Below are positions 1,169-29,479 of a stretch of 32,000 bases of DNA, piece after piece (position 1 is the stretch's first letter; the number at the start of each line of letters is the position of its first letter). The stretch spans positions 300,001 to 332,000 of the forward strand of contig NC_015931.1 of assembly GCF_000223395.1 (NCBI RefSeq). Reading direction: 5' to 3'. Below the pieces are notes generated by a model that had not been told where the DNA came from, searched no databases, and saw only the letters and a program-made list of their open reading frames with translations. Origin of the DNA: Pyrolobus fumarii 1A. Its GTDB lineage: Archaea; Thermoproteota; Thermoprotei_A; Sulfolobales; Pyrodictiaceae. The position numbers were made by a program, and so were the translations under genes.

Positions 1169-3404
1169 CCACTATCCTGGCTGTTAGCGGGGTTCTCCAG
1201 ACGCCCAGCTCCTCGTATGGGATCCTGAGCGTCTCGTTGAGCGCCACCACGTGGTATAGGAGTGCTCCGGTAGCAGCATCGTAGATGTACACCTGGCTGC
1301 CTATCGGCACCCCTGTTATCGTCACGTAGGGGTTGCTAGCCACGAGGAGCTTCGCTACCCACGCTGGTATCGGTACCGTTGGCGCTGTCGGCGGGGACTC
1401 GATGTAGAATGTTATGTTGACGGTGTGAGCTCCTGGGGGTAGCACCTCCCTCATTAGCCTCCATGTGAGCGGTGCCCATAGCTTCCTCCTGAACACATCG
1501 TCCACATACACGTAGGGTATCGTCTGTGCTAGTACGTCGGAGCCCCAGGCGCCGGGTACCCTGCCGTAGAAGCCCATCAGGTACGCGTACACTACGCAGC
1601 CCCCGTCGCAGCTCACGTTGAAGATTAGGCCTGCCCTTGGCCACTCTACCCACAGTTTCAGGGCATTGCCGAGGTTCGTGTCCTCGTAGGTTACCAGCGT
1701 GTAATTACCCCAGAGTTGGAGGCCGAGATCCTCGCCTGCGCAGGGTTCCAGCTCGCTCTCGAAGCAGTAGTACGAGATGAGACCCTCCGCCTCCTTCACA
1801 ACCTCATAGTCCGTCGCGTTGATCTTTACAACCCTGATTAAATCGCCGGGCCATAGTGTGCCGGTCCACACGGCTGGCTTCGCGGCCTCCGGTACGAGCT
1901 CCACGCGCCACACGCTAAACGCGTAGAGAGTGTCAATCTGGTTGAATGGCGCCGCTCCAGCCCTGGCTCTGCTGATGTTATACCATAGGCTCACTACTAT
2001 CGGCGAATCGATAGTGAGGTTGACACCGCGGCATATGATGGTTACGTCTGCATCCGCGTCTACCTGACCCGGTTGCAGAGCGTCAGACACCGCCATGATA
2101 CAGCCGCCATACCTGAGCAACGTTGCGTTCGTAGCGCCCGTGAACAGCTCAGGGTTCTCCACGGGGATGATGTCGGCAAGGTCATTATCGAAGAGCAGCT
2201 TGCCGCCTAGGTAGATCCTCAGCCTCAGGGTAGCGTTGAGCAGGAGGGTCTCGGTGTGGTTTGTTGAGGAGCCGTCGGTGAGCGCCTTCTTTGCCGTCAG
2301 GTCTGCGGGGCAGCCGAGCTCCGCACACGGGTCCCTAACCCACAGGTCGATGCGGAGCGTGTAGCGGCCCTCCACAACCCTCGGGTGTATGGTGATGTTG
2401 CAAGCCCCTGCAGTCGCGTTGCAGGTTAAGCCCAGACCGTGATCCCTGTCCACCCAGGGTTTCACCACGCTCCCAGAGTACGCCACGATGCCCTCGGCGG
2501 CGTATCCCCACCAGCCCTGGAGTGTCGAGACGTCGTCGAACGAGAGGATTATGCTCGGACCGGGTTTACTAGGCTGTGGTGTCGGGCTCCTCCCATAGTC
2601 TATGACTATCGTCTTGACCTCGCCGTCCCTGAGCGTCACCCTGTAGGTTCTGTCGACGGTTGTTGAGCCGGATTGTGCCGTGATCTTGACCGTGTACTCG
2701 CCGGGTGCGAGGCCACACAGCTTCAGGTACCCTGGGTCATTGGAGACTAGCTCCGCTGGCCACTGGGATGCGCCACGCTCGATCCTAACACTTAGGATGT
2801 TTGCAGGGGTTCCCTCAACCCAAGCGTCTACCTCTATGCAGCCCGGCTTGCCCAGTATCCTGAGGACTTGTGTCCCGTGGATGGTGGCTACGTACACCGC
2901 GATGGTCGTGTTGGGGTTGTGGTATAGCATTGGGAGGATTATCGGCTCGGTTGTCTCGATTGTGATGTAGCCTCCCGGCTTGACGACGGGGTAGCCGTCG
3001 CTGCTCCACTCCGGGGCCTCCACCCTCAGCTCCTGTGGGATATCGCCGAGTGCTCCTGGCGCCTTCCACTCCTGGCTCCAGAGCCATAGTGGCGGGTATC
3101 GAGAGTTATCCTCGAGGGCGACCGCCAGGTAGACTATCTTGGCTCCGAAGCGCCCCACGTTCTGCAGTGTGACCCTGAGCCTAGCCCTGTACTCGTCGAC
3201 GGGGATCCACTCGTAGTCGACGAGTTTGAACTGGGTCTGGAGCTGCCTCTCTGCGATAAGCTTCTCCTCGGCGATCCTCAGCTGCGCCTGGAGCCCCTGC
3301 AGCTGGATCGAGTAGACGGCCACCTGGGCGAAGAGGATGATCGCCATGAGGGCGACGACGGCCGGCAGCACCGTCTGGCCCCGCAGCCTCCCCCACGCCA
3401 CCAC
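1155..3404 (-). CDS. large (749 aa) secreted/surface protein with a type IV pilin-like (class III) N-terminus
   Basis: The N-terminus is MVAWGRLRGQ/TVLPAVVALMAIILFAQVAVY, a basic-Gly-Gln segment followed by a hydrophobic helix. The protein has many N-x-S/T sequons and a beta-rich Y/W/T/V composition. The 14-mer GCCACTGCGGGGCC lies 25 nt upstream of the GTG start. Confidence 0.6.
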   Translation of the reverse strand: MVAWGRLRGQTVLPAVVALMAIILFAQVAVYSIQLQGLQAQLRIAEEKLIAERQLQTQFKLVDYEWIPVDEYRARLRVTLQNVGRFGAKIVYLAVALEDNSRYPPLWLWSQEWKAPGALGDIPQELRVEAPEWSSDGYPVVKPGGYITIETTEPIILPMLYHNPNTTIAVYVATIHGTQVLRILGKPGCIEVDAWVEGTPANILSVRIERGASQWPAELVSNDPGYLKLCGLAPGEYTVKITAQSGSTTVDRTYRVTLRDGEVKTIVIDYGRSPTPQPSKPGPSIILSFDDVSTLQGWWGYAAEGIVAYSGSVVKPWVDRDHGLGLTCNATAGACNITIHPRVVEGRYTLRIDLWVRDPCAELGCPADLTAKKALTDGSSTNHTETLLLNATLRLRIYLGGKLLFDNDLADIIPVENPELFTGATNATLLRYGGCIMAVSDALQPGQVDADADVTIICRGVNLTIDSPIVVSLWYNISRARAGAAPFNQIDTLYAFSVWRVELVPEAAKPAVWTGTLWPGDLIRVVKINATDYEVVKEAEGLISYYCFESELEPCAGEDLGLQLWGNYTLVTYEDTNLGNALKLWVEWPRAGLIFNVSCDGGCVVYAYLMGFYGRVPGAWGSDVLAQTIPYVYVDDVFRRKLWAPLTWRLMREVLPPGAHTVNITFYIESPPTAPTVPIPAWVAKLLVASNPYVTITGVPIGSQVYIYDAATGALLYHVVALNETLRIPYEELGVWRTPLTARIVVIPP

Positions 3405-3429
3405 CCGCCACCCTCCACCCCTCCCCCAG

Positions 3430-3443
3430 GGCCCCGCAGTGGC
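3430..3443 (-). promoter_or_regulatory. motif-2 copy (minus strand GCCACTGCGGGGCC) upstream of the 749-aa gene
   Basis: Exact 12-mer CCCCGCAGTGGC (plus strand) is shared with 8053, 10903 and 21305. A 25-nt gap separates it from the start codon at 3404. Confidence 0.5.
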
Positions 3444-3487
3444 CGGGTCCCGGGGAGCCCCTCCACACGGACACCATCCCGGCGCGG

Positions 3488-3828
3488 GTGCAACCGCGGT
3501 TGCACGGGTAGACTATCGTCGAGGCGTTATCACGCCACGGGTACTATACGCGGAGCCGAGTCAACCGCGGTTGGAGCGAGACAAGAGTCTATGGAGTCCG
3601 GCTACGCCTGGAGGGTCTCGGGGCGCCGGCTCCAACCGCGGTTGTAGCCACTCACGGTACGCCAGTTCGCCCGGGGAGGGAGAGGGGCGAGCGAATGTAC
3701 TCCATGCGTAGCAGCCATGGACGGGGCCCGTATCCCGGTGGCGCCATCAGGGTAACACCATGCGAACGAATGTTCGGCCTCCACGGGCGAGCTCCGAGCA
3801 CTCGTTCACCAGTCTTAACCGCGGTTGG
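3488..3828. repeat. cluster A of AACCGCGGTT palindromes (4 copies) in a 468-nt non-coding gap
   Basis: Copies are GTGCAACCGCGGTTGCAC at 3488-3505 (18-bp perfect palindrome), tCAACCGCGGTTGG at 3561-3574, CCAACCGCGGTTGt at 3632-3645 and ttAACCGCGGTTGG at 3815-3828. Core starts are 3492, 3563 and 3634 (71-nt steps), then 3817. Confidence 0.85.
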
Positions 3829-3872
3829 ACGCCTGTATAGGAGAGGGCCGGGTGTTGTGCGGGGGTGCTGGT

Positions 3873-4316
3873 CTAGACGCTTTCGAGCCTCGCTGTTAGC
3901 CTCCGGTACTCGCCGTCGTCGAGCAGGTAGTAGGCTTCTACGCCAGCCCTCCTCGCGTTAACAGCCTGTATCCTGTCGCACGTGGCGAGGATGGACCCGG
4001 TTACCCTCGCGCAGGCTATGAAGAACGCGTCTGCGGCCCTACACCCGGTTCTAAGCGCGACCTCCACGGCCTCCTCGTGCAGAGTGTCGTAGCCCACGAG
4101 GTTGACGAACCTCGTTATCTCGGCGACGTGCGACGCGGCTCTCTCCGGCCTGTACCTGGCCAGCACGCCGCTAAGCTCGACCACAAGGAGCATCGGGGCG
4201 TACACCGGGAGGTTCCTCCTAGACACCACGTCGATCACGCGTAGGCTCCTCCTGCTCCTCTCGGCGTCGAAGCGTATCAGCGCATCCACGTAGACGGAGG
4301 TATCCAGGACTATCAA
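3873..4316 (-). CDS. vapC: PIN-domain toxin (VapC-like ribonuclease)
   Basis: The N-terminus (M)IVLDTSVYVDAL is a typical PIN first acidic motif. The size is 147 aa. The TTG start overlaps the stop of the upstream antitoxin-like gene (TTGA). Confidence 0.75.
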   Translation of the reverse strand: MIVLDTSVYVDALIRFDAERSRRSLRVIDVVSRRNLPVYAPMLLVVELSGVLARYRPERAASHVAEITRFVNLVGYDTLHEEAVEVALRTGCRAADAFFIACARVTGSILATCDRIQAVNARRAGVEAYYLLDDGEYRRLTARLESV

Positions 4317-4567
4317 CGCCGGCCCCCGGTCAAGCTCTTCAGGGGATCCTCGCGCACACCGCTATACTCGCGCGACAACCTGCGTATAGCCTCGGCGAGC
4401 CCCCCAGACCCCCGGACGATCACTATCACGACCCTCTCGCCGTCCCTCAGGTTCACCCGCCTAAGGGGGCGCAACACACCCCCCTCATAGACAGCCTCCA
4501 CGACCTCCAACGCGCGGCCCCGGGACAAGTGTGGAGAAAGAACCGTATCATATAACGTGGCTGGCAT
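4313..4567 (-). CDS. DUF104 (AF2212-like) antitoxin-type protein paired with VapC
   Basis: VEAVYEGGVLRPLRRVNLRDGERVVIVIV matches the DUF104 signature IEAVYENGVxKPL...LKEGE recalled from the family. The ATG at 4567 was chosen. Shorter TTG starts at 4528 or 4510 are possible, and the long ORF-track start at 4681 overlaps the upstream gene. Confidence 0.6.
   Translation of the reverse strand: MPATLYDTVLSPHLSRGRALEVVEAVYEGGVLRPLRRVNLRDGERVVIVIVRGSGGLAEAIRRLSREYSGVREDPLKSLTGGRR
4548..4555 (-). promoter_or_regulatory. TATA-like box TTATATGA upstream of the short DUF104 start candidates
   Basis: This is a rare A/T-rich octamer in GC-rich context, about 23 nt upstream of the TTG at 4528. It lies inside the ATG-4567 reading, so the box and the long start are mutually exclusive. 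Confidence 0.25.
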
Positions 4568-4583
4568 CCGGGCTGGAGGGGTC

Positions 4584-4985
4584 CTAGGGTTCGGCGTCTC
4601 CGAGCTCCGCCGCGAGGAGTGAGCGTATCTCGTCCAGTATGGCTGGTAGCGAGGGCTCTTCCGCCGGTACGACACTCCCATCGCTTAGGTGCTTGTGGTG
4701 CGGGTGGGTTGGTAGCTCTGGGTGGTGCGGGGCGTTATCATAGCGGAATCTGAGGTTACCATGGGGATCCTCGTAGTGGAAGCGATAGGCTATCCTCTCG
4801 ACCCTCTCGCCCCGCGAGACGAGATACTCGAGGAAGTGCAGCCTGGATCCATCCACGAACCTGATTAACCCTCTCAACACGAGCCTAGTCGGCGACCTCA
4901 CCTCCATGGTGATGCTCGAGTATGTTATCAGCTTGCTAAGCCTCCACAGCTTCTCTATCACTCCTCTCGTATACTCTGCGAGCAA
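4584..4985 (-). CDS. DUF6516-like protein (family annotated as TumE-type toxin)
   Basis: The motifs RFHYEDPHGNLRFRYDNAPHHPELPTHPHHKH fit the recalled DUF6516 pattern (RYDNAPHH...PHHKH). It overlaps the upstream partner by 50 nt, and an alternative ATG lies at 4907. Confidence 0.45.
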   Translation of the reverse strand: MLAEYTRGVIEKLWRLSKLITYSSITMEVRSPTRLVLRGLIRFVDGSRLHFLEYLVSRGERVERIAYRFHYEDPHGNLRFRYDNAPHHPELPTHPHHKHLSDGSVVPAEEPSLPAILDEIRSLLAAELGDAEP

Positions 4986-10421: not shown

Positions 10422-10880
10422 TCACCCTATCTGTATTGTTGCGTAGGTTGTCTTGCTGTACTCGTTGCCCTGGGGATCCCTGTAGTAGACTGTGACCCTG
10501 AGCGTCTTGCCCTCTACGAAGCTTGTTGCTCCGAAGTCTCCTGGTTTCAGCGTGAATCCTAGGGTTGTGGTGGCGCCGGCGCTAAGCAGCCTGTTGAGCG
10601 TCACGTTGTAGGTTGCACCCTCGTAGCCGAACTCGACTACAGTTACATTGAGGGGGACGTTACCATCATTCTTTACCATTAGGTTGATGCTGAGCTCCGA
10701 GCCGTCTGGTGGGATAACAGCAGTGACGCCGGAGACCGATAGGGATGCTATGGTCCTGGGCCTCATGAACTGCCCCATGAACATCCAGACCATTAGGCCG
10801 CCCACCACGGCCACCAGGATCAGTATCATCGCCGCGACGACCGGGGAGACCGCCCTAACCCTACCCGCCACCATGGCCAC
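10422..10880 (-). CDS. archaeal type IV pilin-like protein (class III signal, DUF361-type N-terminus)
   Basis: (M)AMVAGRVRAVSPVVAAMILILVAVVGGLMVW matches the RAVSPVIA-type prepilin N-terminus. A beta-rich domain (LMVKNDGNVPLNVTVVEF) follows. The start is GTG 10880 or ATG 10874. Confidence 0.7.
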   Translation of the reverse strand: MAMVAGRVRAVSPVVAAMILILVAVVGGLMVWMFMGQFMRPRTIASLSVSGVTAVIPPDGSELSINLMVKNDGNVPLNVTVVEFGYEGATYNVTLNRLLSAGATTTLGFTLKPGDFGATSFVEGKTLRVTVYYRDPQGNEYSKTTYATIQIG

Positions 10881-12714
10881 TCTCCAGTTTGCTGAAACCA
10901 GACCCCGCAGTGGCCCAGGGACGCGTCTCGAACAACTCCTGCTCTTCCTCTTTTAGCACAACATGAACGGGTAGCCGGAGGCCCTCTGTTAGTATCAGGG
11001 CGTCGCCTACGTCCGCGCTCATTATGAGCTCCTTCTCCTGGTCTGTTAGCCCGAAGAGCTCGGCTGCAGCCTGCGCCGCGTCATAATCGTGGTGGAAGAG
11101 GACCTTGAGGCTGCTGAGCTGCACTGCTATCACCCTGGCCGCCCTGGAGGCCGAGACGTCGCGTGGGTCGTGAGCGATGTGCACGAAGCTCGTGTAGAGC
11201 TTCCTCGAGTCCCGGAACGCCTGGAGCAAAGCCGAGACCACATCGTAGTCGCGGAAGGCCTCGAGCACTTGAACAAACTCGTCAAGCACCACGATCTTCC
11301 TGACGCTCCTAGGCTCCTCGCGTACCCGCTTGAGTATAACCAAAAGTGATAATGCAGCTGCTAGACGCTCTGCCTCGGGGCTACCCATCTCGCGCAACAC
11401 GATAACCACGCGTTTACCCGGCTTGGGTTCTTGACCCGTGAATAGGAAGCCTAGAGGCCCCTCAAGGAGTGCGAGTAGACGTTCTCTTAGCCTCTCAGAC
11501 GCTTTGTTTGCAACCTCCTCTAGACTAGTGCATCTGGATGCTAGTCTTTGAAGCTCGGCTTTCAGGTCAGGCTCTAGGCTAAGCAATGCTGCAATGAATG
11601 TAGCTGCGTGCTCAGGGTGCATTAGGCGGAACGGGTCGAGACCAGCCTTAACGCCACGCTTAAGCTCGAATATGTCAGCGTTCATCGCTTTACCAACCCT
11701 GATGTACTCCCCGGTACGGTCGATGATGTAGACTCTTAGCTCAGGGTCAAGCCGTGAATATCCAAGCGTTATTTTCTTCGCAAACGCTGATTTACCATAG
11801 CCCATCATGCCAAGCACGACAACATTGTAGCTCGTTCGGGCCCAGAGATCCAGGACGACAGGCGTGTCGTCAAGGAGGCTACGGCCCAGATAGATGCCAC
11901 CGGGCTCGACAAGCTGCGTGGTTATGAACGGGTAGAAGGCGGCGAGGGTGACGCTATCGGTGAAGATGGGCTTAGGTTCCTCGCATTCGTACACCTTGTA
12001 ATAATATATTGTGGAGTCCCCGGCTGCGAATCCGAGTGCGTCGAGCTCGCGGATCAGGAGTCTCGCTGCTTCCCTCGCCTCGCTGGGCGTCGACCCGGAG
12101 ACGACGAGCGCTACGCGCACGGCGTGTAGCCTGGCTTCTCGCGCCGCAACCTCCTCCATAAGCTCCGATACCAGCTGCAGCTCCTCGAGCTTCTCTAGCC
12201 TGGGCGCCTTGCCCTCGATCTGCCACGAGGCCACAAGCATCTCTAGGAGCTTCCTCCTTGACCTGAGCAGCCTGAATGCCGCGTGCCTGGAGAGCGGCGT
12301 GACACAGAGCCTAGCCTCCTCGAGGTGAGGGTACAGGTTGTAGAGGAAGCCCTCGGCGAGGACACGAGGCAAGCCATAGACCGTGACGACGCGATAGACC
12401 CTACCCCCGCACACCGCGTAGCTCCTGCGAAGCTCGCAACGCCCCGGGTCGATGAGCGGGGGCGGAGGCTCCAGGAGAGGCTCGTAGCGTAGCCCGGCCC
12501 TCGAGAGGAGAGGGTCAAGCCTCTGCTCGCTGGCAATGTAGAACTCGTAGCCTGGGACCTCCTCACCCTCGATCTTAACGACGACTCTGCGCACGATGAG
12601 CTGCGTCGTCTTCTCCAGCTTGTCGAGGAGAACTCTAAACGAGTCTATGATCGCCTCCTGCTCCTCCTCAGGGAGCAATGGAAACCCGATTGGGTGGATT
12701 TTGTAAGCGTACAC
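10861..12714 (-). CDS. VirB4/HerA-superfamily (CedB/TrbE-like) DNA-transfer ATPase
   Basis: The protein is 617 aa, with Walker A VVVLGMMGYGKSAFAKK and Walker B RKIVVLDEFVQVLE. The domain order is typical of AAA_10/DUF87 conjugation ATPases. It has a GTG start. Confidence 0.7.
   Translation of the reverse strand: MYAYKIHPIGFPLLPEEEQEAIIDSFRVLLDKLEKTTQLIVRRVVVKIEGEEVPGYEFYIASEQRLDPLLSRAGLRYEPLLEPPPPLIDPGRCELRRSYAVCGGRVYRVVTVYGLPRVLAEGFLYNLYPHLEEARLCVTPLSRHAAFRLLRSRRKLLEMLVASWQIEGKAPRLEKLEELQLVSELMEEVAAREARLHAVRVALVVSGSTPSEAREAARLLIRELDALGFAAGDSTIYYYKVYECEEPKPIFTDSVTLAAFYPFITTQLVEPGGIYLGRSLLDDTPVVLDLWARTSYNVVVLGMMGYGKSAFAKKITLGYSRLDPELRVYIIDRTGEYIRVGKAMNADIFELKRGVKAGLDPFRLMHPEHAATFIAALLSLEPDLKAELQRLASRCTSLEEVANKASERLRERLLALLEGPLGFLFTGQEPKPGKRVVIVLREMGSPEAERLAAALSLLVILKRVREEPRSVRKIVVLDEFVQVLEAFRDYDVVSALLQAFRDSRKLYTSFVHIAHDPRDVSASRAARVIAVQLSSLKVLFHHDYDAAQAAAELFGLTDQEKELIMSADVGDALILTEGLRLPVHVVLKEEEQELFETRPWATAGSGFSKLESGHGGG
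10901..10914 (-). promoter_or_regulatory. motif-2 copy (minus strand GCCACTGCGGGGTC) upstream of a pilin-like gene
   Basis: It lies 20 nt upstream of GTG 10880 (26 nt from ATG 10874). It sits inside the last codons of the VirB4-like gene, where it is read as ATAG. Confidence 0.5.
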
Positions 12715-12902: not shown

Positions 12903-12944
12903 TCTGCATGCACGGTTCCAACCGCGGTTGGAACCAGTGCAGAG
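12903..12944. repeat. extended inverted repeat centred on a perfect 22-bp palindrome GGTTCCAACCGCGGTTGGAACC (12914-12935)
   Basis: The outer arms are CTCTGCA (12903-12909) and TGCAGAG (12938-12944). It lies in the 266-nt gap between the TFB-like stop (12981) and the VirB4-like start (12714). An A/T-rich box TTAAATAATCTTCGATTTCTTTATTAGG lies nearby, at about 12851-12878. Confidence 0.85.
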
Positions 12945-21357: not shown

Positions 21358-21795
21358 TTAACCGCGGTTGCCGGCAACGCTGGCGACCTTGCACCTCATT
21401 TCTCCCACAACCCCTCCCAAGATCATGGCAGACGTGGAAAGCGCGGCGCTTACGGGGTCTACCGCGGGTCTAACACCGAACAAGCTCAGGGTGAGCGTGG
21501 CTAACACGACAACCGTGAAGTACGGCACAGCTATGGAGATGGCCCCTCGAAGACCGTGTCTAAACCCCTCCGTGAATGACTCCACCAGACCCACGAGCAC
21601 CAGGGTCACGCTAAACGCGGCGAGTAGAGGTACGTTTATCAGAGGCTGGGCGTTGACACCTAGCGTGCGAAGCCAGGCCATAAAAGCCGTCTCAGCTGCG
21701 TGTATCGCCCTGAGGCCCATCTGTAAAAAGCTGTGCAAGACATCCTCGAGGGCCATCTCGACTATAATGAAGGGATTGTGAGACATGCGCACCAC
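21358..21795 (-). CDS. membrane protein (3-4 TM), first gene of the Ced-like block
   Basis: It is 145 aa with several hydrophobic segments. The start is GTG 21795 or ATG 21786. The stop codon lies inside the palindrome ttAACCGCGGTTGc (21358-21371). Confidence 0.5.
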   Translation of the reverse strand: MVRMSHNPFIIVEMALEDVLHSFLQMGLRAIHAAETAFMAWLRTLGVNAQPLINVPLLAAFSVTLVLVGLVESFTEGFRHGLRGAISIAVPYFTVVVLATLTLSLFGVRPAVDPVSAALSTSAMILGGVVGEMRCKVASVAGNRG

Positions 21796-21817
21796 CGTGA
21801 TCTCGAAGTATGTCTGT

Positions 21818-21826
21818 GCTTTTACG
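21818..21826 (-). promoter_or_regulatory. A/T-rich box (minus strand CGTAAAAGC), candidate TATA element for the 21795 operon
   Basis: Its centre is about 26 nt upstream of GTG 21795, consistent with a leaderless or short-leader transcript. It rests on a single weak motif. Confidence 0.3.
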
Positions 21827-21900
21827 CGTGCCTGTGTACCTCTATGCTGGCGTTAGACTAGGTATGTGTGGTTAGCTCCTTGGCGTCCGTGCCTGCACTT

Positions 21901-21920
21901 GGCTTCTCCCGCGAGAAGCC
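21901..21920. other. perfect stem-loop GGCTTCTC-CCGC-GAGAAGCC between the regulator genes and the Ced-like operon
   Basis: An 8-bp stem with a 4-nt loop lies 49 nt downstream of the Zn-finger/RHH gene stop (21969). A related word GCTTCTCCCGTG recurs at about 21942. Confidence 0.6.
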
Positions 21921-21968
21921 CGAGTACGAAAGCCACCATGAGCTTCTCCCGTGCGCCTATCTTCATCC

Positions 21969-22493
21969 TCAGCAGCTCCTCAGCTGGGCTAGTACCGCAG
22001 CGGCGCGTAGGAGGTCGGAGCGCGTGAGGCCTAGCGCCTTTGCCCTCTCGTCAACCTCCTCGTCGAGCTCCGCCGGGAGCTTTACAGACCTGATGGTGGG
22101 CGCCTTGCAGCGTAGAGCCTCCATGCTCAGCTTGTTCACCGTATCGGCGTCCATCTCGAGCACCTTGCGTAGGGCCTCTCGTAGAGGCCCGGACCCGGGG
22201 AAGATGCACGTCTTGAACGTGGTCACTACGCTCCTGGCTCTACGCTCCACCCCCGCTCCCGCCGCCGGGGGTACCAGCTTGACGCGCGAGCCGCGGGAGC
22301 AGAGATAGGCGAGCATCCTGTGACACTCGTCGCTGAAACGCGACGAGTGTACAAGCGCGCCGGCCACACCCCGGAGGGGGCGGCCACAGCAAGGACACGC
22401 GTTGAACACGTGCACCTTCTTGACGTGCCTCTTGAGGCTGGATAGTTGCTTGTAGCTGCGCCCGCAGAACGGACACACGTACAACCCTACCAC
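21969..22493 (-). CDS. C2H2 zinc-finger / ribbon-helix-helix (CopG-like) fusion DNA-binding protein
   Basis: The N-terminal YVCPFCGRSYKQLSSLKRHVKKVH is a classic C2H2 finger, and CPCCG...H follows. The C-terminal RSVKLPAELDEEVDERAKALGLTRSDLLRAAAVLA is RHH-like. Confidence 0.6.
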   Translation of the reverse strand: MVGLYVCPFCGRSYKQLSSLKRHVKKVHVFNACPCCGRPLRGVAGALVHSSRFSDECHRMLAYLCSRGSRVKLVPPAAGAGVERRARSVVTTFKTCIFPGSGPLREALRKVLEMDADTVNKLSMEALRCKAPTIRSVKLPAELDEEVDERAKALGLTRSDLLRAAAVLAQLRSC

Positions 22494-22768
22494 CCCGCTA
22501 TCGCCGCGAGCCTCTCAAGCCTCCTGAGGAGGAGCCCACCGAGCCTCTCCCCGCGCAGCCTCACGACGCCACCCCTCTCCTCCAGCAGCCCGGCCGCAGC
22601 GAGAACCTCGATCTCCTCCCGCACGCCGCGCCCACCACCAGCGATTATGACATTGCGCTTCTCCCTGACGCGCCTCACAGCAGCCTCGATATCCTCCACC
22701 CTAGCCTCGCCACCGTTAGCCGCCAGGTAGCCCAGGAGAAAGTCACGGAGGAACACCACCCTCCTCAC
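22487..22768 (-). CDS. small winged-helix-like DNA-binding protein (tentative)
   Basis: It is 93 aa. FLLGYLAANGGEARVEDIEAAV...LAAAGLLEERGGVVRL resembles a wHTH layout. It overlaps both neighbouring genes. Confidence 0.4.
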   Translation of the reverse strand: MRRVVFLRDFLLGYLAANGGEARVEDIEAAVRRVREKRNVIIAGGGRGVREEIEVLAAAGLLEERGGVVRLRGERLGGLLLRRLERLAAIAGW

Positions 22769-23124
22769 CGCCCACCACCCCCAGCCTCGAGATACTCGCC
22801 GCAGAGACGAGCACGGGCAGCATCGCCGCTAGAGAGCACCGGGACGCCGTCACGCTCCACGATGATCTTGACCCTCCTCGCCTTCGACGCCAGCTCCTCG
22901 AGGAGATCCAGCCACTCGTCCTCATCCATAGGCACGCCAGGGGCGGCCACCGGAGGCTCAACCTCGAAGACCAGGCCCTCCCCATCCGCCAGCTCCTTCA
23001 CCATCCTACCCGTGATCATCGAGAGCTGGTGGACGAGGAAGCCAAGCTCCTGGTACGTCTCCGGGGTCACTGGCAGATCCCAGACGAGGCGAACCCGGTA
23101 CCCCGACACCCCACGCCACCCCAC
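22765..23124 (-). CDS. hypothetical protein
   Basis: This 119-aa ORF is first in the minus-strand regulator operon and faces a divergent promoter region. Confidence 0.45.
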   Translation of the reverse strand: MGWRGVSGYRVRLVWDLPVTPETYQELGFLVHQLSMITGRMVKELADGEGLVFEVEPPVAAPGVPMDEDEWLDLLEELASKARRVKIIVERDGVPVLSSGDAARARLCGEYLEAGGGGR

Positions 23125-23142
23125 CAGCCGCCAGACAGATTA

Positions 23143-23180
23143 TGTTTGGGCCCAACACATAAAACTCGTTTGGCCCAAAC
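23143..23180. promoter_or_regulatory. divergent promoter/operator: two related palindromes flanking an ATAAAA box
   Basis: TTGGGCCCAA lies at 23146-23155 (perfect 10-bp palindrome). GTTTGG-c-CCAAAC lies at 23168-23180. ATAAAA at 23159-23164 sits between them. The whole element occupies the 75-nt gap between minus-strand gene 23124 and the plus-strand operon. Confidence 0.5.
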
Positions 23181-23199
23181 AATTGACTGGGTCTCGGGT

Positions 23200-24156
23200 T
23201 TGACCGCGGTTGGCGCCGAGCAGCCTAGGCCCGCGCCCGACGAGTACCTGGACTCCCTCCGGGCGGCGGGGAGGCGCGACTGGATACCCGAGGAGTGTAG
23301 CGTCGACGGCGACCTCGTCACCTGCCCGCGTGAGGCTCTCCGTCGTCTACTCCTCGCGGCGGCCGTGGCGATCTTCAAGCAGAGGCTACTCGAGAGGGCT
23401 CTGCGCGAACACGAAGACCTCTACGAGAGGCTCCGCGAGAAGCTGGAGGCCGTCGAGGCGGAGGTCGGGTGGCTGGAGGAGGAGCTTGCGGGGCTCGAGA
23501 GGCTTGTTGGGAGTCTCCTCGGGCTCCAGCCGCGCGTCGAGGAGCTTCTCAGGGAGGTGGGGGAGGCGAGGAGGGAGGCTGCTCGGCTCCTCGAGAGGGT
23601 CGGGAGGTGGACATCGGTATGGGAGTGTAGCTACTCGATCCCGCACCCGGAGACGATCCGTCGCAGGTGTAGGCGTAACCGAAGGCTCTGCATCCTCGCG
23701 GATAGGGTGCAGCGCGCTAAGGCCGAGTGGTACGATTTCCTGTGGAGCCTCCCCGTCCTCGAGCTGGGCGAGGGCCGTGTCCTCCTCTTCAGGGAGGTTG
23801 ACGCCCGGCGCCTGGAGGAAGTATGGAGGCGGCTCTTCGACGGGATAGTCGAGGGGCTGAGGAGGGAGGGGTACCGCACTCGCGCATCCTGCACGTGCAT
23901 CAAGCGCCTCGTGGCGCCCGAGCAGCTGGTCAGGGATGTTGAGGCTGAGGCGGAGAGGCTCCGCGGCGAGATAGAGAGGCTCGTCGCGAGGTCCGCGGAG
24001 CTGGCGAGGATGGGCCGGTCCGCCTCGAGTATCCTCCGCCGCGCAGAGAAGCTCCGAGAGAGGCTGGCGCAGCTAGAGCAGATCCTCCGCGAGCTCCGCG
24101 AGAAGCTGCCTCGAGACGCTCGCGCTAAGGCCCCAACCGCGGTTGCACGGGGGTGA
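23200..24156 (+). CDS. coiled-coil protein, first gene of the DpdA-like operon
   Basis: It has long heptad-like E/R/L-rich stretches. TTG 23200 was chosen because the ORF-track start at 23029 lies inside the divergent gene. The start is uncertain. Palindrome copies lie at its start (23200-23213, right half only) and 10 nt before its stop (24133-24146). Confidence 0.45.
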   Translation: MTAVGAEQPRPAPDEYLDSLRAAGRRDWIPEECSVDGDLVTCPREALRRLLLAAAVAIFKQRLLERALREHEDLYERLREKLEAVEAEVGWLEEELAGLERLVGSLLGLQPRVEELLREVGEARREAARLLERVGRWTSVWECSYSIPHPETIRRRCRRNRRLCILADRVQRAKAEWYDFLWSLPVLELGEGRVLLFREVDARRLEEVWRRLFDGIVEGLRREGYRTRASCTCIKRLVAPEQLVRDVEAEAERLRGEIERLVARSAELARMGRSASSILRRAEKLRERLAQLEQILRELREKLPRDARAKAPTAVARG

Positions 24157-24162
24157 CTGGTC

Positions 24163-25080
24163 GTGCTCAGGGTATTCCTCGTGTCAGTGCATGAAACTAA
24201 CGCGCTGAGGGAGGCTCTAGAGACCCTGGCGAGGCTGGACCGGGAGCTGAGCCGCTGCTGCGGCGTTAGGATTGGCTTGTTGGCGAACTGGCTCAAGTGG
24301 CGGTATAGGCTCGAGTGGCTGGTGGCCGCGAAGAGACGCTACGGGCTCATAGTCTACGTTGATAGTGGCGGCTTTCAGGGTAGGGTGGAGCCAGAGGAGT
24401 ACGCGGGGTGGCTGTGCCGCTACTGGCGGCTGGTGGATGTCGTCTTCGCGCCCGACGACCCCGTCCTCCTCTGCGGGGATCCTCTCGACGAGCAGTGTAG
24501 ACGGCGGAAGATCTGGAGGACTATGGCACTGGCCGTGGAGTTCGCCCAGCTGGTCACCGAGAGGTGCCCGGGTGCCCTGCAGAGGCTCTCGTTGACGCTC
24601 CAGGGCTTGACGCCAGACGAGTACATGGAGTGCTACCAGGGCATCATTGACATGCTCGGGAGCGTGGGCGTCGAAGCCTCGGACTTGAATCCTCTCATCA
24701 CGCTGGGCTCCCTGAAGCTACGCTCGTGGAGGTCTCGCGTCGCGGGGCTACGCGGCACGATAGCCGAGGTTGTGAGCGAGATCAACCTGAAGCCTCTACA
24801 CCTCCTCGGGGTGCACGGCAGGGACCTCCACAAGGTGCTGAACAACGCCAACGTCCACAGCGCTGACACCGGCGCCCAGGGCCTCAACTACATCCTCAAA
24901 CACCGTGATGTGCTCGGATGTGAGAGGCTGGGCCCGGAGTGCTACGCGAGAGCAGTGGAACGCGAAGTCTTCTCGAGTCTCGAGCCTCTCCTCAAGCTCT
25001 CCAAGCTCCGTACCCTCGACAAGTTCATCCCAACCGCGGTCGAGAGGGTGGCTGGCAGTGCAGAGGCTCAGGGTGCCTAA
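24163..25080 (+). CDS. TGT-superfamily transglycosylase, DpdA-like (or the TGT-like half of a split ArcS)
   Basis: IVYVDSGGFQG matches the TGT/DpdA catalytic DSGGFQ motif. Further TGT-like blocks are VFAPDDP, LTLQGLTPDEY, LHLLGV and VHSADTGA. At 305 aa it is short, and no CxCxxC...H zinc site or PUA domain was seen. Confidence 0.6.
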   Translation: MLRVFLVSVHETNALREALETLARLDRELSRCCGVRIGLLANWLKWRYRLEWLVAAKRRYGLIVYVDSGGFQGRVEPEEYAGWLCRYWRLVDVVFAPDDPVLLCGDPLDEQCRRRKIWRTMALAVEFAQLVTERCPGALQRLSLTLQGLTPDEYMECYQGIIDMLGSVGVEASDLNPLITLGSLKLRSWRSRVAGLRGTIAEVVSEINLKPLHLLGVHGRDLHKVLNNANVHSADTGAQGLNYILKHRDVLGCERLGPECYARAVEREVFSSLEPLLKLSKLRTLDKFIPTAVERVAGSAEAQGA

Positions 25081-26026
25081 GGATCGGCTCGGAAGGTTCC
25101 CTGCTAGACACCATCTGGGTATAGACCCTCAGCTTACGGGCATCAGAGCGTTAGAGCATCGTGCGGTGCGAGAGTGGCACCATTGGCTGGCTGACAGGTG
25201 GCTCCCCGAGTGGCCGGTCCTGCTCATCACGCCGTGCAGCAACGTGAAGCCCTACACGCGCTCCCCGACCTCGAGGAAGATCGCCGCGGTGCTCCGGAGG
25301 CTGGGGCTGTGGCGCGGCGGGGCCCCCTTCGGCGTAGAGTGGCTCTACCTCTCGGATCTACTGGTTCTCGTGCCCTACGTACGCGCGGGTGAGTACCCGG
25401 CGTGCTGCTACGAGCTACACCCCGAGGAACTGTTGAAAGACAGGGAGCGTTACGAGCTGATTGTGGGGCTCCTCTCAGACCTGATAGCCCGCAAGCTCTG
25501 GCCGCACACAGTCATCCTATTCCTGCCGAGGAGGCACCTCGAGTTGTGGAGCGAGGCCTACTCGAGGGCGAGGCTCAAGCCACGGGTTGTACGGGTAGCC
25601 TACACTATCTTCTCGGTGAGGGGCCTCGAGGAGGCTGTTAGAGCGGCGGTCGTCGAGGCTGCTCGTGCAACCCGTGCCGTGCTAGAGAGGGGTCTCGGGG
25701 ATGATACCTGCTCTATGGCTGTGCATCGTGCTGACGGCTCGTACATCGAGATCCGCCACCCTAGCGACTGCAGCGGAGAGTGGTGTAGACAGGACGCTCG
25801 TTTCGCCGAAACCTGCCTAGAGTCCCTGTGCAGGCGGCTCTGGCTCGTCGATAGGTTCGCCGGCCCCCTGGATCCCGGGAGGCTACCGGATCGCATCCGC
25901 AGCTTCTGCGTCGAGAGGGGCTACCTCCCGGCCCACGCGCCCCGCCAGGTGAGCCTAGACGAGATCCTCCCGGGCAACCCCGCCCAACCGCGGTTGGAAC
26001 AGCCTCGCAACGCTCATAGGGGGTGA
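25073..26026 (+). CDS. ArcS-like DUF5591 domain protein
   Basis: ITPCSNVKPYTRSPTSR fits the ArcS signature PC-x3-KPY-x2-S-x2-H, with the final H replaced by S. GTG 25073 overlaps the upstream stop by 8 nt. The ORF-track start at 24905 would overlap the upstream gene by 176 nt. Confidence 0.55.
   Translation: MPKDRLGRFPARHHLGIDPQLTGIRALEHRAVREWHHWLADRWLPEWPVLLITPCSNVKPYTRSPTSRKIAAVLRRLGLWRGGAPFGVEWLYLSDLLVLVPYVRAGEYPACCYELHPEELLKDRERYELIVGLLSDLIARKLWPHTVILFLPRRHLELWSEAYSRARLKPRVVRVAYTIFSVRGLEEAVRAAVVEAARATRAVLERGLGDDTCSMAVHRADGSYIEIRHPSDCSGEWCRQDARFAETCLESLCRRLWLVDRFAGPLDPGRLPDRIRSFCVERGYLPAHAPRQVSLDEILPGNPAQPRLEQPRNAHRG
25984..25997. repeat. perfect CCAACCGCGGTTGG copy 26-39 nt upstream of the wHTH gene start
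   Basis: It is an exact 14-mer lying inside the 3' end of the ArcS-like gene, where it is read as QPRL. Confidence 0.85.
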
Positions 26027-26712
26027 GGGGCGTGGCTGGGAGGAGGGTAGTGGAGGCTGCCGTTCCAACCGCGGTTGTACCGGGGAGGCCCAGATCCCAG
26101 AGGGTGGCGCTACTACTAGACCACCTGCTCGCGAAGGGCGAGGAAGGGGCCCTCGCCCACGAGCTCAGCCTGGTGGCCGGCATCCCATCCCGTCAGGTCT
26201 ACCCGTACCTAAGGTGGTGGGTCCAGAAGCGAGTGGTAGAGGTCTCGAAGGCCGGCTGGCTCAACGTCTACCGGCTCAGCCGTAGGGTCCGGAGGGCCCT
26301 CGAGGAGCTTCTAAGGCTCTTGTTCAGGTCTAGGGAGCTGCGTCTGGCTCGCCTCGCTCAGAGGCTCGCGGAGCACCGTCTCATGAGGAGACTGTCGCTC
26401 ATAGAGGCGGAGGTTGTGGCGTTGCTCGCGGAGCGTCTCCTCTCGGGCAGCCCCTACCTGAGGATAAGGGCGGAGTCTAGGTTCCACGCCCTCGACGTGC
26501 TCCGCGTGAAGCTCGAGGCTAGGCTGCGTAGGCTCGGCCTAAGCCCCGAGCAGGTAGCCACACAACTACAACTACTGGGGGAGGCGCTGGAGGAGCTCAC
26601 CGAGGCCGGGGTGATCTACACCCACTGGGACGCCCGCAGCCACACCCTGGTGCTCAGACTCGACCGGAGCATCGAGGAGGAACTCCGGCGACTAGGAGAA
26701 CCACGAGGCTAA
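26023..26712 (+). CDS. double winged-helix DNA-binding protein
   Basis: RVALLLDHLLAKGEEGALAHELSLVAGIPSRQVYPYLRWWVQKRVVEVSKAGWLNVYRLS is MarR/wHTH-like. A second wH-like unit is present (SLIEAEVVALLAERLLSG...LTEAGVIYTHWDARSHTLVLRL). The GTG start overlaps the upstream stop (GTGA). Confidence 0.55.
   Translation: MRGVAGRRVVEAAVPTAVVPGRPRSQRVALLLDHLLAKGEEGALAHELSLVAGIPSRQVYPYLRWWVQKRVVEVSKAGWLNVYRLSRRVRRALEELLRLLFRSRELRLARLAQRLAEHRLMRRLSLIEAEVVALLAERLLSGSPYLRIRAESRFHALDVLRVKLEARLRRLGLSPEQVATQLQLLGEALEELTEAGVIYTHWDARSHTLVLRLDRSIEEELRRLGEPRG
26065..26078. repeat. CCAACCGCGGTTGt copy 43-56 nt inside the wHTH gene
   Basis: The 10-nt core is perfect and is read as PTAV. Together with 25984-25997 it brackets the start codon at 26023. 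Confidence 0.85.
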
Positions 26713-26777
26713 AACCACCCCCGCTTCCACTGGAGCACCTGGAGAACCCCCTACTCCTCTCTACTATCCTAACTACT

Positions 26778-27222
26778 CCAACCGCGGTCGAATCCCCCGC
26801 TTAACCGCGGTTAAACCCCGGTTCCAACCGCGGTTGGAAACAAACTCCCCCACATCAAGAGCCCCGAGCACAACAAGACACCCAAGACACTCTTACCCAC
26901 GAGTACCTCCCCACGCACCGGGGTCTGGTTTAACCGCGGTTAGACTCGGGTTCCAACCGCGGTTGGGGTGGACCGAAAGTACCGGACACCCCTCCGGACA
27001 GGAAGATATTCTAGAACAACCATGACACGCTATCTTGTTATATACCATTTTACGGGCTAAACTCGGGCTGAAGAGAAGCTAAACTCGCGGGGATCATCAC
27101 GCGGTGCATAGAGACTTAGGTTTCAACCGCGGTTGGAACCCGGGATTCGGGCCCGGGAAGCGACCAGGGAGGCGCAAACAAGTAGTTGTGGTAGTCGAGG
27201 GGTTCGCCCCAACCGCGGTTGG
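26778..27222. repeat. cluster B of AACCGCGGTT palindromes (7 copies) in a 570-nt non-coding hub with an A/T-rich core
   Basis: 14-mers start at 26778 (core 1 mismatch), 26801 (TTAACCGCGGTTAA), 26824 (TTCCAACCGCGGTTGGAA), 26930, 26953, 27123 and 27209. Three spacings are 23 nt. The 37-nt composite unit 26801-26837 is repeated at 26930-26966 (34/37 identical). The A/T-rich stretch at about 27001-27060 has 22/60 G+C by hand count. Confidence 0.85.
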
Positions 27223-27282
27223 ATGCGGGCGGGGCTAGGCGAGACACTGCTCTAGTCAACATCCCTTTGAGCAGCCCTGGGT

Positions 27283-27987
27283 GTGGCTTGCCGCTGGTTG
27301 GCCTGCCTGGGTGTGGATGTTGGACGTTTGGAGCCTCGCCCTACGGGCTGTCGGGTTTGCTGCGGGGCCGTAGTGGGGCTTCTGCTAGGCTGGGTGTTTC
27401 GCGAGGTTAAGGGGCTCTATGACCGTGTGCTACGCTTCGCCGAGAGGCTCGAGGCGGTAAGGGGGGAGCTTGAGGCGAAGCTCTACAGGGAGAATGGCGT
27501 CTATCATGCGGCGCTGCTCGGCGAGAAGATGGGCGTTACGCGTAGCCTCGTCGTGATCTACGAGGATGTTGGTGCGCTGTACCCGCGGGAGGTGGACGAG
27601 GAGCTACAGAGGTTCTACGCGTATGCTGTTAGGCTACGGGAGATAGCGGAGGATTATCCCTCGCCGCGGGAGATCCGAGAGATGGCTTGGAGGTTCATCT
27701 GGAGAGCCCTCTGGCTGCTGACACCAGCCATGGCCCTACCTCTCGCCTTTACGCCCCTCCCGGCGCCTCTGGATGCGCTCGCTAGTTTTGCACTCATACC
27801 AGCGCTTATAATGCTCTACGCATATAACGTGCTTGACGTGCTTCGTTTGAAGCTAGAGGAGTCGGACGAGAAGCGTAGGGAGTTTTGCGCGGCGCTGGGC
27901 GAGAGGATAGGGATGATGGAGAACCTCTCTAGCCTACGCGGTAAGAGAGTATTGTCGAGGGAGTTGATGGGGAGGCTGTGTGGCTAG
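27283..27987 (+). CDS. hypothetical protein with a C-terminal-half membrane segment
   Basis: This 234-aa ORF has a GTG start of uncertain position. The hydrophobic stretch is WRALWLLTPAMALPLAFTPLPAPLDALASFALIPALIMLYAY. No family was recognised. Confidence 0.4.
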   Translation: MACRWLACLGVDVGRLEPRPTGCRVCCGAVVGLLLGWVFREVKGLYDRVLRFAERLEAVRGELEAKLYRENGVYHAALLGEKMGVTRSLVVIYEDVGALYPREVDEELQRFYAYAVRLREIAEDYPSPREIREMAWRFIWRALWLLTPAMALPLAFTPLPAPLDALASFALIPALIMLYAYNVLDVLRLKLEESDEKRREFCAALGERIGMMENLSSLRGKRVLSRELMGRLCG

Positions 27988-28478
27988 GCCTCGAGGATCC
28001 TCTCGGCTATCTCGCTCTTCTTGGCGTACTCGGGGTACGCGCTGTACACGTAGCGGAGGAGCTCGAAGGGCTTATCGGCCCACAGGCGGACCAGCCTCTC
28101 CATCTGCTCGAGGAAGTGGGGCTCCTCCCTCCTCAGCCTCTCCACTATCTCCTCGTAGAGCCTCCTCCCCTCCCCGGTCAGCTCGAAGACGTAGACGGTG
28201 TATGCTCCTCCATGAGAGGGCTCGGTGTGCACCCTCACCAGGCCCCGCCTCCTCGCCTCGTCGACGCCCCTCGCCAGCTCCGCGGAGACCGGGCCGTAAC
28301 GGGTGGGTGTGTACCCCAGGCAGCAGCCGCCCGCCTCAACGACGCCCAGGAACCCGAGCTTCTGGAGAACCGTGCCGCCACGCAGCCGCCCGCCGGCGAG
28401 CCCCACGAGCAGCACAACCCACTCGACGGGCGATAGCCTGGCCACACATCCCCCCGTAGAGGCGGGGGGTACCAGCAT
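27984..28478 (-). CDS. hypothetical protein (weak YwgA/SocA-Panacea-like N-terminal pattern)
   Basis: It is 164 aa. GTVLQKLGFLG...YTPTRYGPVSAELARGVDEARRRGLV loosely resembles the T.LQKL..Y..YGP pattern. The assignment is tentative. Confidence 0.35.
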   Translation of the reverse strand: MLVPPASTGGCVARLSPVEWVVLLVGLAGGRLRGGTVLQKLGFLGVVEAGGCCLGYTPTRYGPVSAELARGVDEARRRGLVRVHTEPSHGGAYTVYVFELTGEGRRLYEEIVERLRREEPHFLEQMERLVRLWADKPFELLRYVYSAYPEYAKKSEIAERILEA

Positions 28479-29391: not shown

Positions 29392-29479
29392 TGGCGCCGG
29401 GGGCGGGATTTGAACCCGCGCGGGGTTGCCCCCACCGGCTTAGCAGGCCGGCGCCCTAGCCAGGCTAGGCGACCCCGGC
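29392..29479 (-). tRNA. tRNA-Ser (anticodon GCU), CCA encoded
   Basis: The minus strand reads GCCGGGG-TC-GCC..GGC-G-CCGGC-CTGCTAA-GCCGG-TGGGGGCAACCCCGC(long variable arm)-GCGGG-TTCAAAT-CCCGC-CCCCGGC-G-CCA. All stems pair, and the length is 88 nt. Confidence 0.9.

Follow-up and report, generated by a model that had tools for sequence, protein, structure and literature searches.

A candidate replication-origin module beside a tandem winged-helix gene in a conjugative-plasmid-like island of Pyrolobus fumarii

A 32-kb stretch of the Pyrolobus fumarii 1A chromosome (contig NC_015931.1, positions 300,001 to 332,000; referred to below as the window, with coordinates counted from its first nucleotide) contains a 570-nucleotide (nt) gene-free region, the hub, at 26713–27282, directly downstream of a gene for a tandem winged-helix protein. 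The left 28.5 kb of the window, beside a tRNA-Ser(GCT) gene, looks by its gene content like a conjugative-plasmid-like island. Guided mainly by a comparison with plasmids of the Sulfolobales, we lean towards the view that the hub is a cis-acting replication-origin module of this island. A first-pass annotation of the same DNA had offered an origin, a centromere or a master operator as candidate roles. The origin role gains comparative support: the winged-helix gene belongs to a plasmid family, the gene-free region that follows it is the putative origin of those plasmids, and both sides share a core and the frame around it. The palindromes of the hub, on the other hand, are probably not the initiator array (iterons) that had been proposed, as they are spread over the 28.5-kb island and lie mostly at gene 5' ends.

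The hub is the largest gene-free stretch of the window, the next largest being 468 nt, and its layout is as first described. Seven 14-mer palindromes start at 26778, 26801, 26824, 26930, 26953, 27123 and 27209, with 23-nt steps inside the first two groups, and a 37-nt composite unit occurs at 26801–26837 and again at 26930–26966 with 34 of 37 positions (92%) identical. The segment 27001–27060 has 22 G+C in 60 positions (0.367), TTATATA is present at 27038–27044, and the direct repeat GCTAAACTCG is found at 27056 and 27078. Across the window, 60-nt windows have a mean G+C content of 0.616 with a standard deviation (sd) of 0.069; the one at 27004–27063 (0.35) is the second lowest, about 3.9 sd under the mean. 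This A/T-rich centre carries TTATATACCATTTTACGG, and three GCTRA units follow one another as GCTAA (27056), GCTGA (27067) and GCTAA (27078). The pattern GCTAA-N6-GCTRA-N6-GCTAA occurs once in the window, where 0.00 occurrences are expected. The gene and the parts of the hub are listed below; L003 is a contig of a metagenome-assembled genome that carries a close relative of the locus.

26032–26712, + strand: Pyrfu_0361, 226 amino acids (aa), tandem winged-helix protein; candidate initiator and/or site-binding protein
26756–26777, + strand: left inverted-repeat arm CCTCTCTACTATCCTAACTACT (ACTAC-type), 77% complementary to 27181–27202
26778–26837: left palindrome array, with 14-mers at 26778, 26801 and 26824 and AACCCCGGTT at 26814–26823; centres about 11.5 nt apart
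26930–26966: second composite unit, with palindromes at 26930 and 26953, the latter with its counterpart at 2874 in L003
27001–27063: A/T-rich island of 35–37% G+C, a candidate unwinding element that includes TTATATA
27045–27082, + strand: conserved core CCATTTTACGGGCTAA-N6-GCTGA-N6-GCTAA, three GCTRA units at 11-nt spacing
27086–27103: short hairpin-capable element CGCG-N10-CGCG, with ATCACGCG kept in L003
27123–27136: palindrome right of the core, 170 nt from the 26953 site (166 nt in L003)
27181–27202, − strand: right inverted-repeat arm AGTAGTTGTGGTAGTCGAGGGG
27209–27222: outermost right palindrome, 86 nt past the 27123 site (90 nt in L003)

We regard the hub as non-coding because substitutions relative to L003 are distributed evenly over the three codon phases (13/15/14) and short translated matches between the two sequences fall in several frames and on both strands, with no single conserved open reading frame (ORF). 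A small ORF missed by gene prediction was rejected on the same grounds.

The ORF upstream of the hub is 100% identical to Pyrfu_0361 of P. fumarii 1A. It had been read as a double winged-helix protein, and an AlphaFold2 model built from a six-sequence alignment agrees (predicted local distance difference test, pLDDT, 84.6), with two H-H-H-E-E units at residues 23–82 and 150–210 and a long helix between them. In Foldseek and PDB profile searches, the closest matches of the N-terminal wing are ArsR/SmtB repressors and AspA, which binds the centromere of plasmid pNOB8; the match to AspA has a profile E of 1.2e-3, 25–28% identity over about 80 residues and a root-mean-square deviation of 2.8 Å. 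The whole protein aligns loosely with tandem-wing proteins such as ScpB, and a relationship to the Rep_3 family was not apparent at the sequence level. An exhaustive profile search collected only 31 small clusters of proteins of 180–230 aa from Pyrodictiaceae, Desulfurococcales and Sulfolobales, none of them informatively named. Pyrfu_0361 was the sole P. fumarii copy of the family found in one word-indexed protein search, a protein-guided scan of metagenome contigs recovered one chromosomal paralogue, and the corresponding scan of viral contigs gave no match.

The link to plasmids came from a tblastn search against plasmid sequences, which returned a match on pYN01 of S. islandicus. Alignment of the family profile with the pYN01 protein by hhalign covers the full length (99.9%, E 1e-36, 175 columns), and this protein is called a 'conserved conjugative plasmid protein' by one source. 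Homologues are present on eight plasmid records, namely pYN01, pMGB1, pSOG1, pSOG2, pB12E5, pHGQ25, pTC1 and another S. tengchongensis plasmid. The gene layout was examined in pYN01, pMGB1, pSOG2, pB12E5 and pHGQ25, and in all five the gene ends a small operon and is followed by 438–802 nt without genes. In the conjugative plasmids of the Sulfolobales, a region with repeats and no ORFs, 'section B', has been proposed as the putative origin; in pTC1, the putative origin has been placed in a large intergenic region that follows ORF142 (PMC4390865). A putative origin of pKEF9 has also been mentioned (PMC4872121).

The plasmid regions share a common order of elements: two copies of a quasi-palindromic 16-mer TAAACTCCCCAGTTTA, then TATATAACTACTACT, about 85 nt, TTTTAC..GGCTAA-N6-GCTAA-N6-GCTAA, about 100 nt, AGTAGTAGTTATACA, and the 16-mer in inverted orientation. 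All five carry AACTACTACT to the left and AGTAGTAGTT to the right of the (GCTAA)x3 core. The parts of the hub follow this order in degenerate form. The inverted ACTACTAC arms that frame the shared core are exact in the plasmids and 77% complementary in the hub, where they are about 410 nt apart compared with 212–235 nt in the plasmids, because the palindrome arrays sit between the left arm and the core. In an alignment of ten loci, which included the chromosomal paralogue loci described below, the TTATA box is present in all ten, and GCTAR units are kept from Sulfolobus plasmids of 30% G+C to Pyrodictiaceae of 60% G+C. The conserved core can be written as TTATA..TTTTACG..GCTAA-N6-GCTRA-N6-GCTAA; the block is intact in L003, pYN01, pMGB1 and pHGQ25, and degenerate in pB12E5, pSOG2 and the paralogue loci L001, L133 and L004. 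The TTATATA box and the GCTAA repeats singled out in the first-pass annotation are thus parts of a DNA core kept from Sulfolobales to Pyrodictiaceae, and its conservation across ten loci identifies the box and the GCTAAACTCG repeat as pieces of an old conserved cis-element.

Taken together, the hub and the section B regions are alike in having a homologous tandem winged-helix gene directly upstream, a non-coding, gene-free region of 0.44–0.8 kb (570 nt in the hub), a pair of inverted ACTAC-type arms, a TTATA/TTTTAC box with three GCTRA units at 11-nt spacing after it, and a palindromic or quasi-palindromic site found at the flanks of the region and also dispersed across the replicon at gene boundaries. 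A VirB4/DUF87-type ATPase and a TFB-like zinc-ribbon protein are further common features of the two elements (PMC4390865). They differ in the palindrome itself (CCAACCGCGGTTGG in the hub, TAAACTCCCCAGTTTA in the plasmids) and in the 23-nt-phased arrays between the left arm and the core of the hub. The host also differs: the hub belongs to a Pyrodictiaceae genome of 60% G+C and to a chromosomal element beside tRNA-Ser, with no integrase in the window, and the Pyrolobus island adds type-IV-pilus-like T2SSE/T2SSF genes. The comparison with origins of related plasmids that the first-pass annotation had proposed came out in two ways: the shared core and inverted-repeat frame were found, while a similarity search with the hub DNA itself gave no match in plasmid or phage collections. 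Searching viral contigs for the core pattern gave three matches.

The same core could also be read as RNA, with the TTATATA box giving rise to a small non-coding RNA or an extended structured leader and the palindromes acting as operators or RNA hairpins. The TTATA box is indeed followed 18–19 nt later by the conserved GCTAR block in the Pyrodictiaceae loci, and the segment 27050–27290 has a folding z-score of −2.8. However, a negative z-score is expected from the palindromes alone, the same block recurs in A/T-rich Sulfolobus plasmids without an obvious common RNA structure, and the two alignable sequences are too few for covariation. A search of 26600–27400 against Rfam 15 with E up to 10 gave only two chance-level matches (E 4–7), far below gathering scores, and the tRNA-Ser was the only match in a covariance-model scan of the window. 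An RNA product as the main function of the hub seems very improbable to us. A C/D-box or other small RNA within the core was a separate candidate and was rejected, as no box pair was seen by eye on either strand and there was no Rfam match.

Closer relatives confirm that the module is under constraint. In L003, the winged-helix protein is 78% identical to Pyrfu_0361, and the order of a DUF5591 gene, the winged-helix gene and a gap (820 nt) is the same. The L003 gap contains five TCAACCGCGGTTGA-type palindromes, the first two 23 nt apart, and three of them hold the positions of the 26953, 27123 and 27209 sites at the spacings listed above. Between these sites, the core of about 155 nt shares 73% identity with L003, a level of conservation similar to that of the neighbouring genes. 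Chromosomal paralogues on contigs L001, L004 and L133 are 53–58% identical in protein sequence and have other neighbours, which are themselves conserved, the gene lying beside asd in L001, L002 and L004. They also precede a gene-free region, 594 nt long in L001 (loci at 9780–11260 in L001, 3780–4095 in L004, where the contig ends 283 nt after the gene, and 2500–3000 in L133). In L001 and L133, this gap is C-rich on the left and G-rich on the right and has inverted ACTAC/GTAGT elements; a TTATA-GCTAG core is seen in L001 and L004 and is degenerate in L133. The only palindromes at the paralogue loci are of a loosely related AACC..GGTT type. Judged by this layout, the paralogue loci in other Pyrodictiaceae-like genomes may be chromosomal origins of the same class.

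A chromosomal origin with a comparable arrangement is known in Sulfolobus. The experimentally proven oriC3 lies immediately downstream of whiP, whose product is predicted to have tandem winged helices; it binds motifs at the edges of the intergenic region and is required for oriC3 firing (PMC3607249). Homologues of whiP occur in Sulfolobales and Desulfurococcales, and the gene and origin are thought to have been captured as a pair from an extrachromosomal element (PMC3607249, PMC4010727, PMC10769869). WhiP-type origins have been described as inverted repeat (IR)/ucm/IR, with the 12-bp IR TACTACTACTAC and the ucm TTATACAAAC (preprint 10.64898/2026.08.15.744077); the ucm is bound by UBP (PMC12141716). 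The hub resembles this system in the modelled tandem winged-helix fold and in its position directly downstream of the candidate initiator gene, and the WhiP-dependent origin of Aeropyrum pernix falls in the same class. The plasmid regions carry an inverted TACTACTAC pair of exactly the oriC3 IR type, and the pair in the hub is degenerate and in the right orientation, with TACTACTACTAC-like matches to the left of the core on the + strand and to its right on the − strand. The best TACTACTACTAC matches in the window (two mismatches) are at 26564 (+) and 27182 (−), again correctly oriented, in a window-wide count of 24 against 16.6 expected that is not above chance. The AACCGCGGTT palindrome arrays and their dispersal are absent from the described grammar of oriC3. 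The likeness of the hub to WhiP/oriC3 is one of architecture and a single motif. An origin of the Orc1/Cdc6 type, with origin recognition boxes around a DNA unwinding element (ORB/DUE/ORB), does not fit: no AAA+ orc1/cdc6 gene was present among the scanned window ORFs, and the hub carries perfect palindromes in place of ORB-like repeats.

If the hub is an origin, it and the tandem winged-helix gene just upstream would form a replicator-initiator pair. The winged-helix protein would recognise the inverted arms and/or the GCTRA units that frame the origin; melting of the 35% G+C centre and loading of the host MCM helicase would follow, as proposed for WhiP-dependent oriC3. Replicator-initiator pairs with a tandem winged-helix protein are a known kind, exemplified by plasmid section B and by WhiP/oriC3, and the Pyrodictiaceae member with its own palindrome arrays is new. 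The connection drawn between the plasmid protein family, the section-B core and the Pyrolobus chromosomal locus appears to be new as well, as do the conserved GCTRA-triple core and the parallel between the scattered palindromes of two lineages.

Replication of crenarchaeal conjugative plasmids is essentially unstudied, with an origin that has only been predicted and an initiator still to be named (PMC4390865). The Pyrolobus locus supplies a concrete initiator candidate, together with a deeply conserved core common to Sulfolobales plasmids and Pyrodictiaceae chromosomes, and each lineage pairs this core with a scattered palindrome of its own. The locus also links plasmid replication with the WhiP-dependent chromosomal origin and its proposed source in a captured extrachromosomal element. 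As a more speculative extension, which we hold with little confidence, the locus could be a snapshot of 'origin capture', in which the replicon of a conjugative plasmid sits in a chromosome next to tRNA-Ser; if the protein family is that of WhiP, crenarchaeal conjugative plasmids would be the long-sought donors of WhiP/oriC3 origins, and the winged-helix protein would be both the initiator of these plasmids and, through the palindrome, a global regulator that ties transfer-gene expression to replication. Should both the WhiP link and origin activity prove true, the locus would document the donor of an archaeal chromosomal origin class. The module could also help to build replicating vectors for hyperthermophiles that are now without them.

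Several observations weigh against an origin at the hub. Protein family searches found no integrase, Rep, MCM or primase in the window, and the island may be a domesticated DNA-transfer locus of the Ced/Ted type instead of a mobile plasmid. The ACTAC-type arms of the hub are degenerate, and the TACTACTACTAC-like matches lack window-wide enrichment at the counts given above. The ucm TTATACAAAC has no match in the hub at two or fewer mismatches, only TTATATAC (27038–27045) being common to both. No protein named WhiP was found among the clusters of the profile search or in two alignment-based searches, which returned close relatives only, and P0037, a distant member of the family, is not followed by a long gene-free region. 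In the plasmids, too, section B is an origin by prediction only (PMC4390865, PMC4872121), and initiation at the hub is inferred from comparison.

The palindrome CCAACCGCGGTTGG extends well beyond the hub. Seven copies lie in the hub and 19 elsewhere over 28.5 kb: the core ACCGCGGT has 26 copies between positions 15 and 28535 of the window, and AACCGCGGTT with at most one mismatch gives 28 matches in the window against 0.78 expected. None of the 26 copies lies in the 3.4 kb that contains tRNA-Ser, Thi4 and PdxS. Many copies extend to a 22-bp palindrome GGTTCCAACCGCGGTTGGAACC (for example 12914–12935, 26820–26841 and 27119–27140), in which GGTT and AACC tetramers alternate about every 6 nt; the 37-nt composite contains six such tetramers, and direct reading of it places three palindromic centres 11–12 nt apart on one helix face. 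Copies outside the hub, and a second candidate for the protein that binds them, are as follows.

25984–25997 and 26065–26078: palindrome pair around the start codon of the winged-helix gene, a possible autoregulatory pair
3490–3828: second cluster, with copies at 3490, 3561 and 3632 (71-nt steps) and 3815, in the 468-nt gap 3405–3872, 5' of a 749-aa CarboxypepD_reg-like gene
15, 933, 12918, 13947, 14350, 16820, 17654, 17822, 21358, 23200, 24133, 25030 and 28522: dispersed copies outside the clusters
21969–22493, − strand: C2H2 zinc-finger and CopG-type ribbon-helix-helix protein, alternative candidate for the palindrome binder

Fourteen of the 26 copies are intergenic, compared with 12.5% non-coding sequence (P = 5e-7), and eight of the 12 coding copies lie no more than 42 nt from a start codon, which brings the intergenic or start-proximal copies to 22 of 26. 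If the copies are treated as 16 independent loci, 12 of these are intergenic or start-proximal (P = 3e-6). Relatives keep the positions at gene starts: the site at the start of the DUF5591 gene is found at 25030 in the window, at 552 in L003 and at 438 in a further contig, L007, which also has the same pair around its winged-helix start (1433), at 1384–1397 and 1448–1461. The gap of the second cluster (3405–3872) is without an A/T-rich core and without the GCTRA block. A parallel is seen in pMGB1, which carries 12 copies of the 15-mer AAACTCCCCAGTTTA (two or fewer mismatches) in 28 kb, three of them at the putative origin and most of the others intergenic or at gene starts. Because the copies are dispersed, lie mostly at gene 5' ends, hold conserved positions and have this parallel in pMGB1, the most fitting interpretation of the palindrome is a target for a dimeric DNA-binding protein encoded by the element, acting island-wide and concentrated at the origin. 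A scan of 185,579 genomes for the pattern AACCGCGGTT-N8-38-AACCGCGGTT gave unrelated bacteria, with no Pyrolobus among the matches listed, and a literature search for the palindrome sequence returned cloning primers only.

With such a distribution, the hub could be purely transcriptional, representing the strongest operator cluster of a global regulator of the island, placed between the terminator of the winged-helix operon and a downstream promoter and having no replication role. The dispersal of the palindrome to intergenic and start-proximal positions, the gene-start sites kept in L003 and L007, the location of the L003 hub directly 5' of an operon for a pilin-like and a 391-aa protein, and the TTATA box in the centre would all be in keeping with this. 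However, what stays constant from Sulfolobales plasmids to Pyrodictiaceae is the winged-helix gene on the upstream side, and the gene on the downstream side differs between loci (TnpB, unrelated small ORFs, a C25 peptidase, the pilin operon). Moreover, the inverted arms and the core with its GCTRA triple are kept between 30% and 60% G+C, which is more than a promoter usually keeps. We therefore consider a purely transcriptional hub unlikely. The 'master operator' of the first-pass annotation fits the palindromes themselves; as a description of the whole hub without a replication role, it stands only as this alternative.

Within the origin reading, the palindrome would form a separate layer bound by a dimeric protein encoded by the element. 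The favoured candidate is the winged-helix protein Pyrfu_0361, because its wing is AspA-like, a pair that looks autoregulatory lies at the start of its gene, and the motif changes along with the protein family; the zinc-finger/ribbon-helix-helix protein listed above is an alternative candidate. The seven palindromes of the hub would bracket the origin core, some of them in helical phase, with the other 19 mostly at gene 5' ends. A single protein on origin-flanking and gene-start palindromes could therefore couple origin activity to the transcription of transfer and maintenance genes, with palindrome occupancy both bracketing the core and setting transcription over the island, in a manner similar to KorB by analogy, not by homology.

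KorB is a bacterial ParB-family protein with 12 palindromic OB operators on the IncP plasmid RK2. The likeness is functional only: one palindrome is dispersed at promoters and at a maintenance locus, linking control of transcription with maintenance. KorB is unrelated in sequence and fold, and the island has no partner ATPase. Another instructive comparison is with iteron plasmid origins, whose Rep proteins have two winged-helix domains (RepE of F, pi of R6K and RepA of pPS10). These origins resemble the hub in the two winged-helix domains, in phased repeats beside an A/T-rich segment, and in the inverted repeats at the rep promoter that autoregulate, to which the pair at 25984 and 26065 may be compared. 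They differ in that the hub repeats are perfect palindromes, not direct iterons, and are scattered over the element.

The AspA-like wing raises the question of partition. The hub could be a centromere-like site, with the winged-helix protein binding the palindromes and spreading as AspA does on pNOB8, so as to segregate the excised element. The best PDB matches of the N-terminal wing, in both sequence and fold, are to AspA, which likewise binds a palindrome on a crenarchaeal conjugative plasmid, and the hub sites are palindromic and arrayed in phase. The AspA-type fold, however, belongs to the generic ArsR/PadR-like wings. AspA itself has one domain and about 90 aa, it is encoded together with ParB and ParA, and the pNOB8 centromere lies upstream of aspA-parB-parA, whereas Pyrfu_0361 has two domains and its site cluster lies downstream. 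Furthermore, no Pfam, NCBIfam or PHROG match to ParA or ParB was found in the window, and Walker A (P-loop) motifs in the 28 kb are confined to two secretion-type ATPases, which leaves no ParA. A centromere is the weakest of the three roles offered by the first-pass annotation, since the wing is AspA-like but no ParA-type ATPase is encoded in the window, and we judge it improbable.

Alignment of window positions 21358–27222 with L003 positions 2005–4821 indicates an inversion of the stretch that separates the pilin-like gene from the hub, the L003 hub being followed directly by the pilin-like gene and the 391-aa gene. Palindromes lie at or near both inferred ends of the inversion (21358 and 27209). 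The palindromes might thus be recombination or rearrangement sites, or the hub an origin of transfer, making it a hotspot for module shuffling or for the start of transfer. The scattered 16-mer of Sulfolobus conjugative plasmids was reportedly described as a recombination motif by Greve et al. in 2004. Rearrangement of these plasmids at repeat motifs has been reported (PMC4872121). On the other side, the alignment does not place the inversion breakpoints at the nucleotide level, no relaxase or recombinase was found in the window, and the conserved positions of sites at gene starts argue for a binding-site role over incidental scars. We see little probability in a recombination or transfer function as the explanation of the hub.

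G+C content is mostly 0.59–0.66 in the left 28.5 kb, compared with 0.56–0.60 in the host flank. The island also encodes a T2SSF-like membrane protein, a T2SSE ATPase, a T4SS-pilin-like protein (a weak match), a TFB-like zinc-ribbon protein, and PIN/AF2212-like and TumE toxin-antitoxin genes. The search for an att duplicate found no second copy of the tRNA-Ser sequence in the window, which places the left end of the island out of view. The two remaining landmarks are as follows.

10861–12714: VirB4/HerA-like ATPase, an island gene
29392–29479: tRNA-Ser(GCT), at the right end of the window, followed by Thi4 and PdxS

Directly 5' of the winged-helix gene, 25058–26026 encodes a protein with a DUF5591 or archaeosine-synthase (ArcS)-like segment, a neighbour that is kept in L003 and L007 and might act in tRNA or DNA modification. 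To the right of the hub, a 164-aa ORF at 27984–28478 (− strand) resembles part of the type I restriction S subunit of pYN01 (25% identity, E 6e-6) and also phrog_14939; a palindrome lies about 50 nt 5' of its start. A different palindrome, present in two copies (TTGGGCCCAA and TTTGGCCCAAA), is located at 23147–23190 in the divergent region between genes for a 119-aa (−) and a 318-aa (+) protein, just before the main palindrome that overlaps the start at 23200. Finally, the 8-mer palindrome CCTCGAGG occurs 17 times in the window, and these copies are probably driven by Leu-Glu codons (CTC GAG) in G+C-rich coding sequence.

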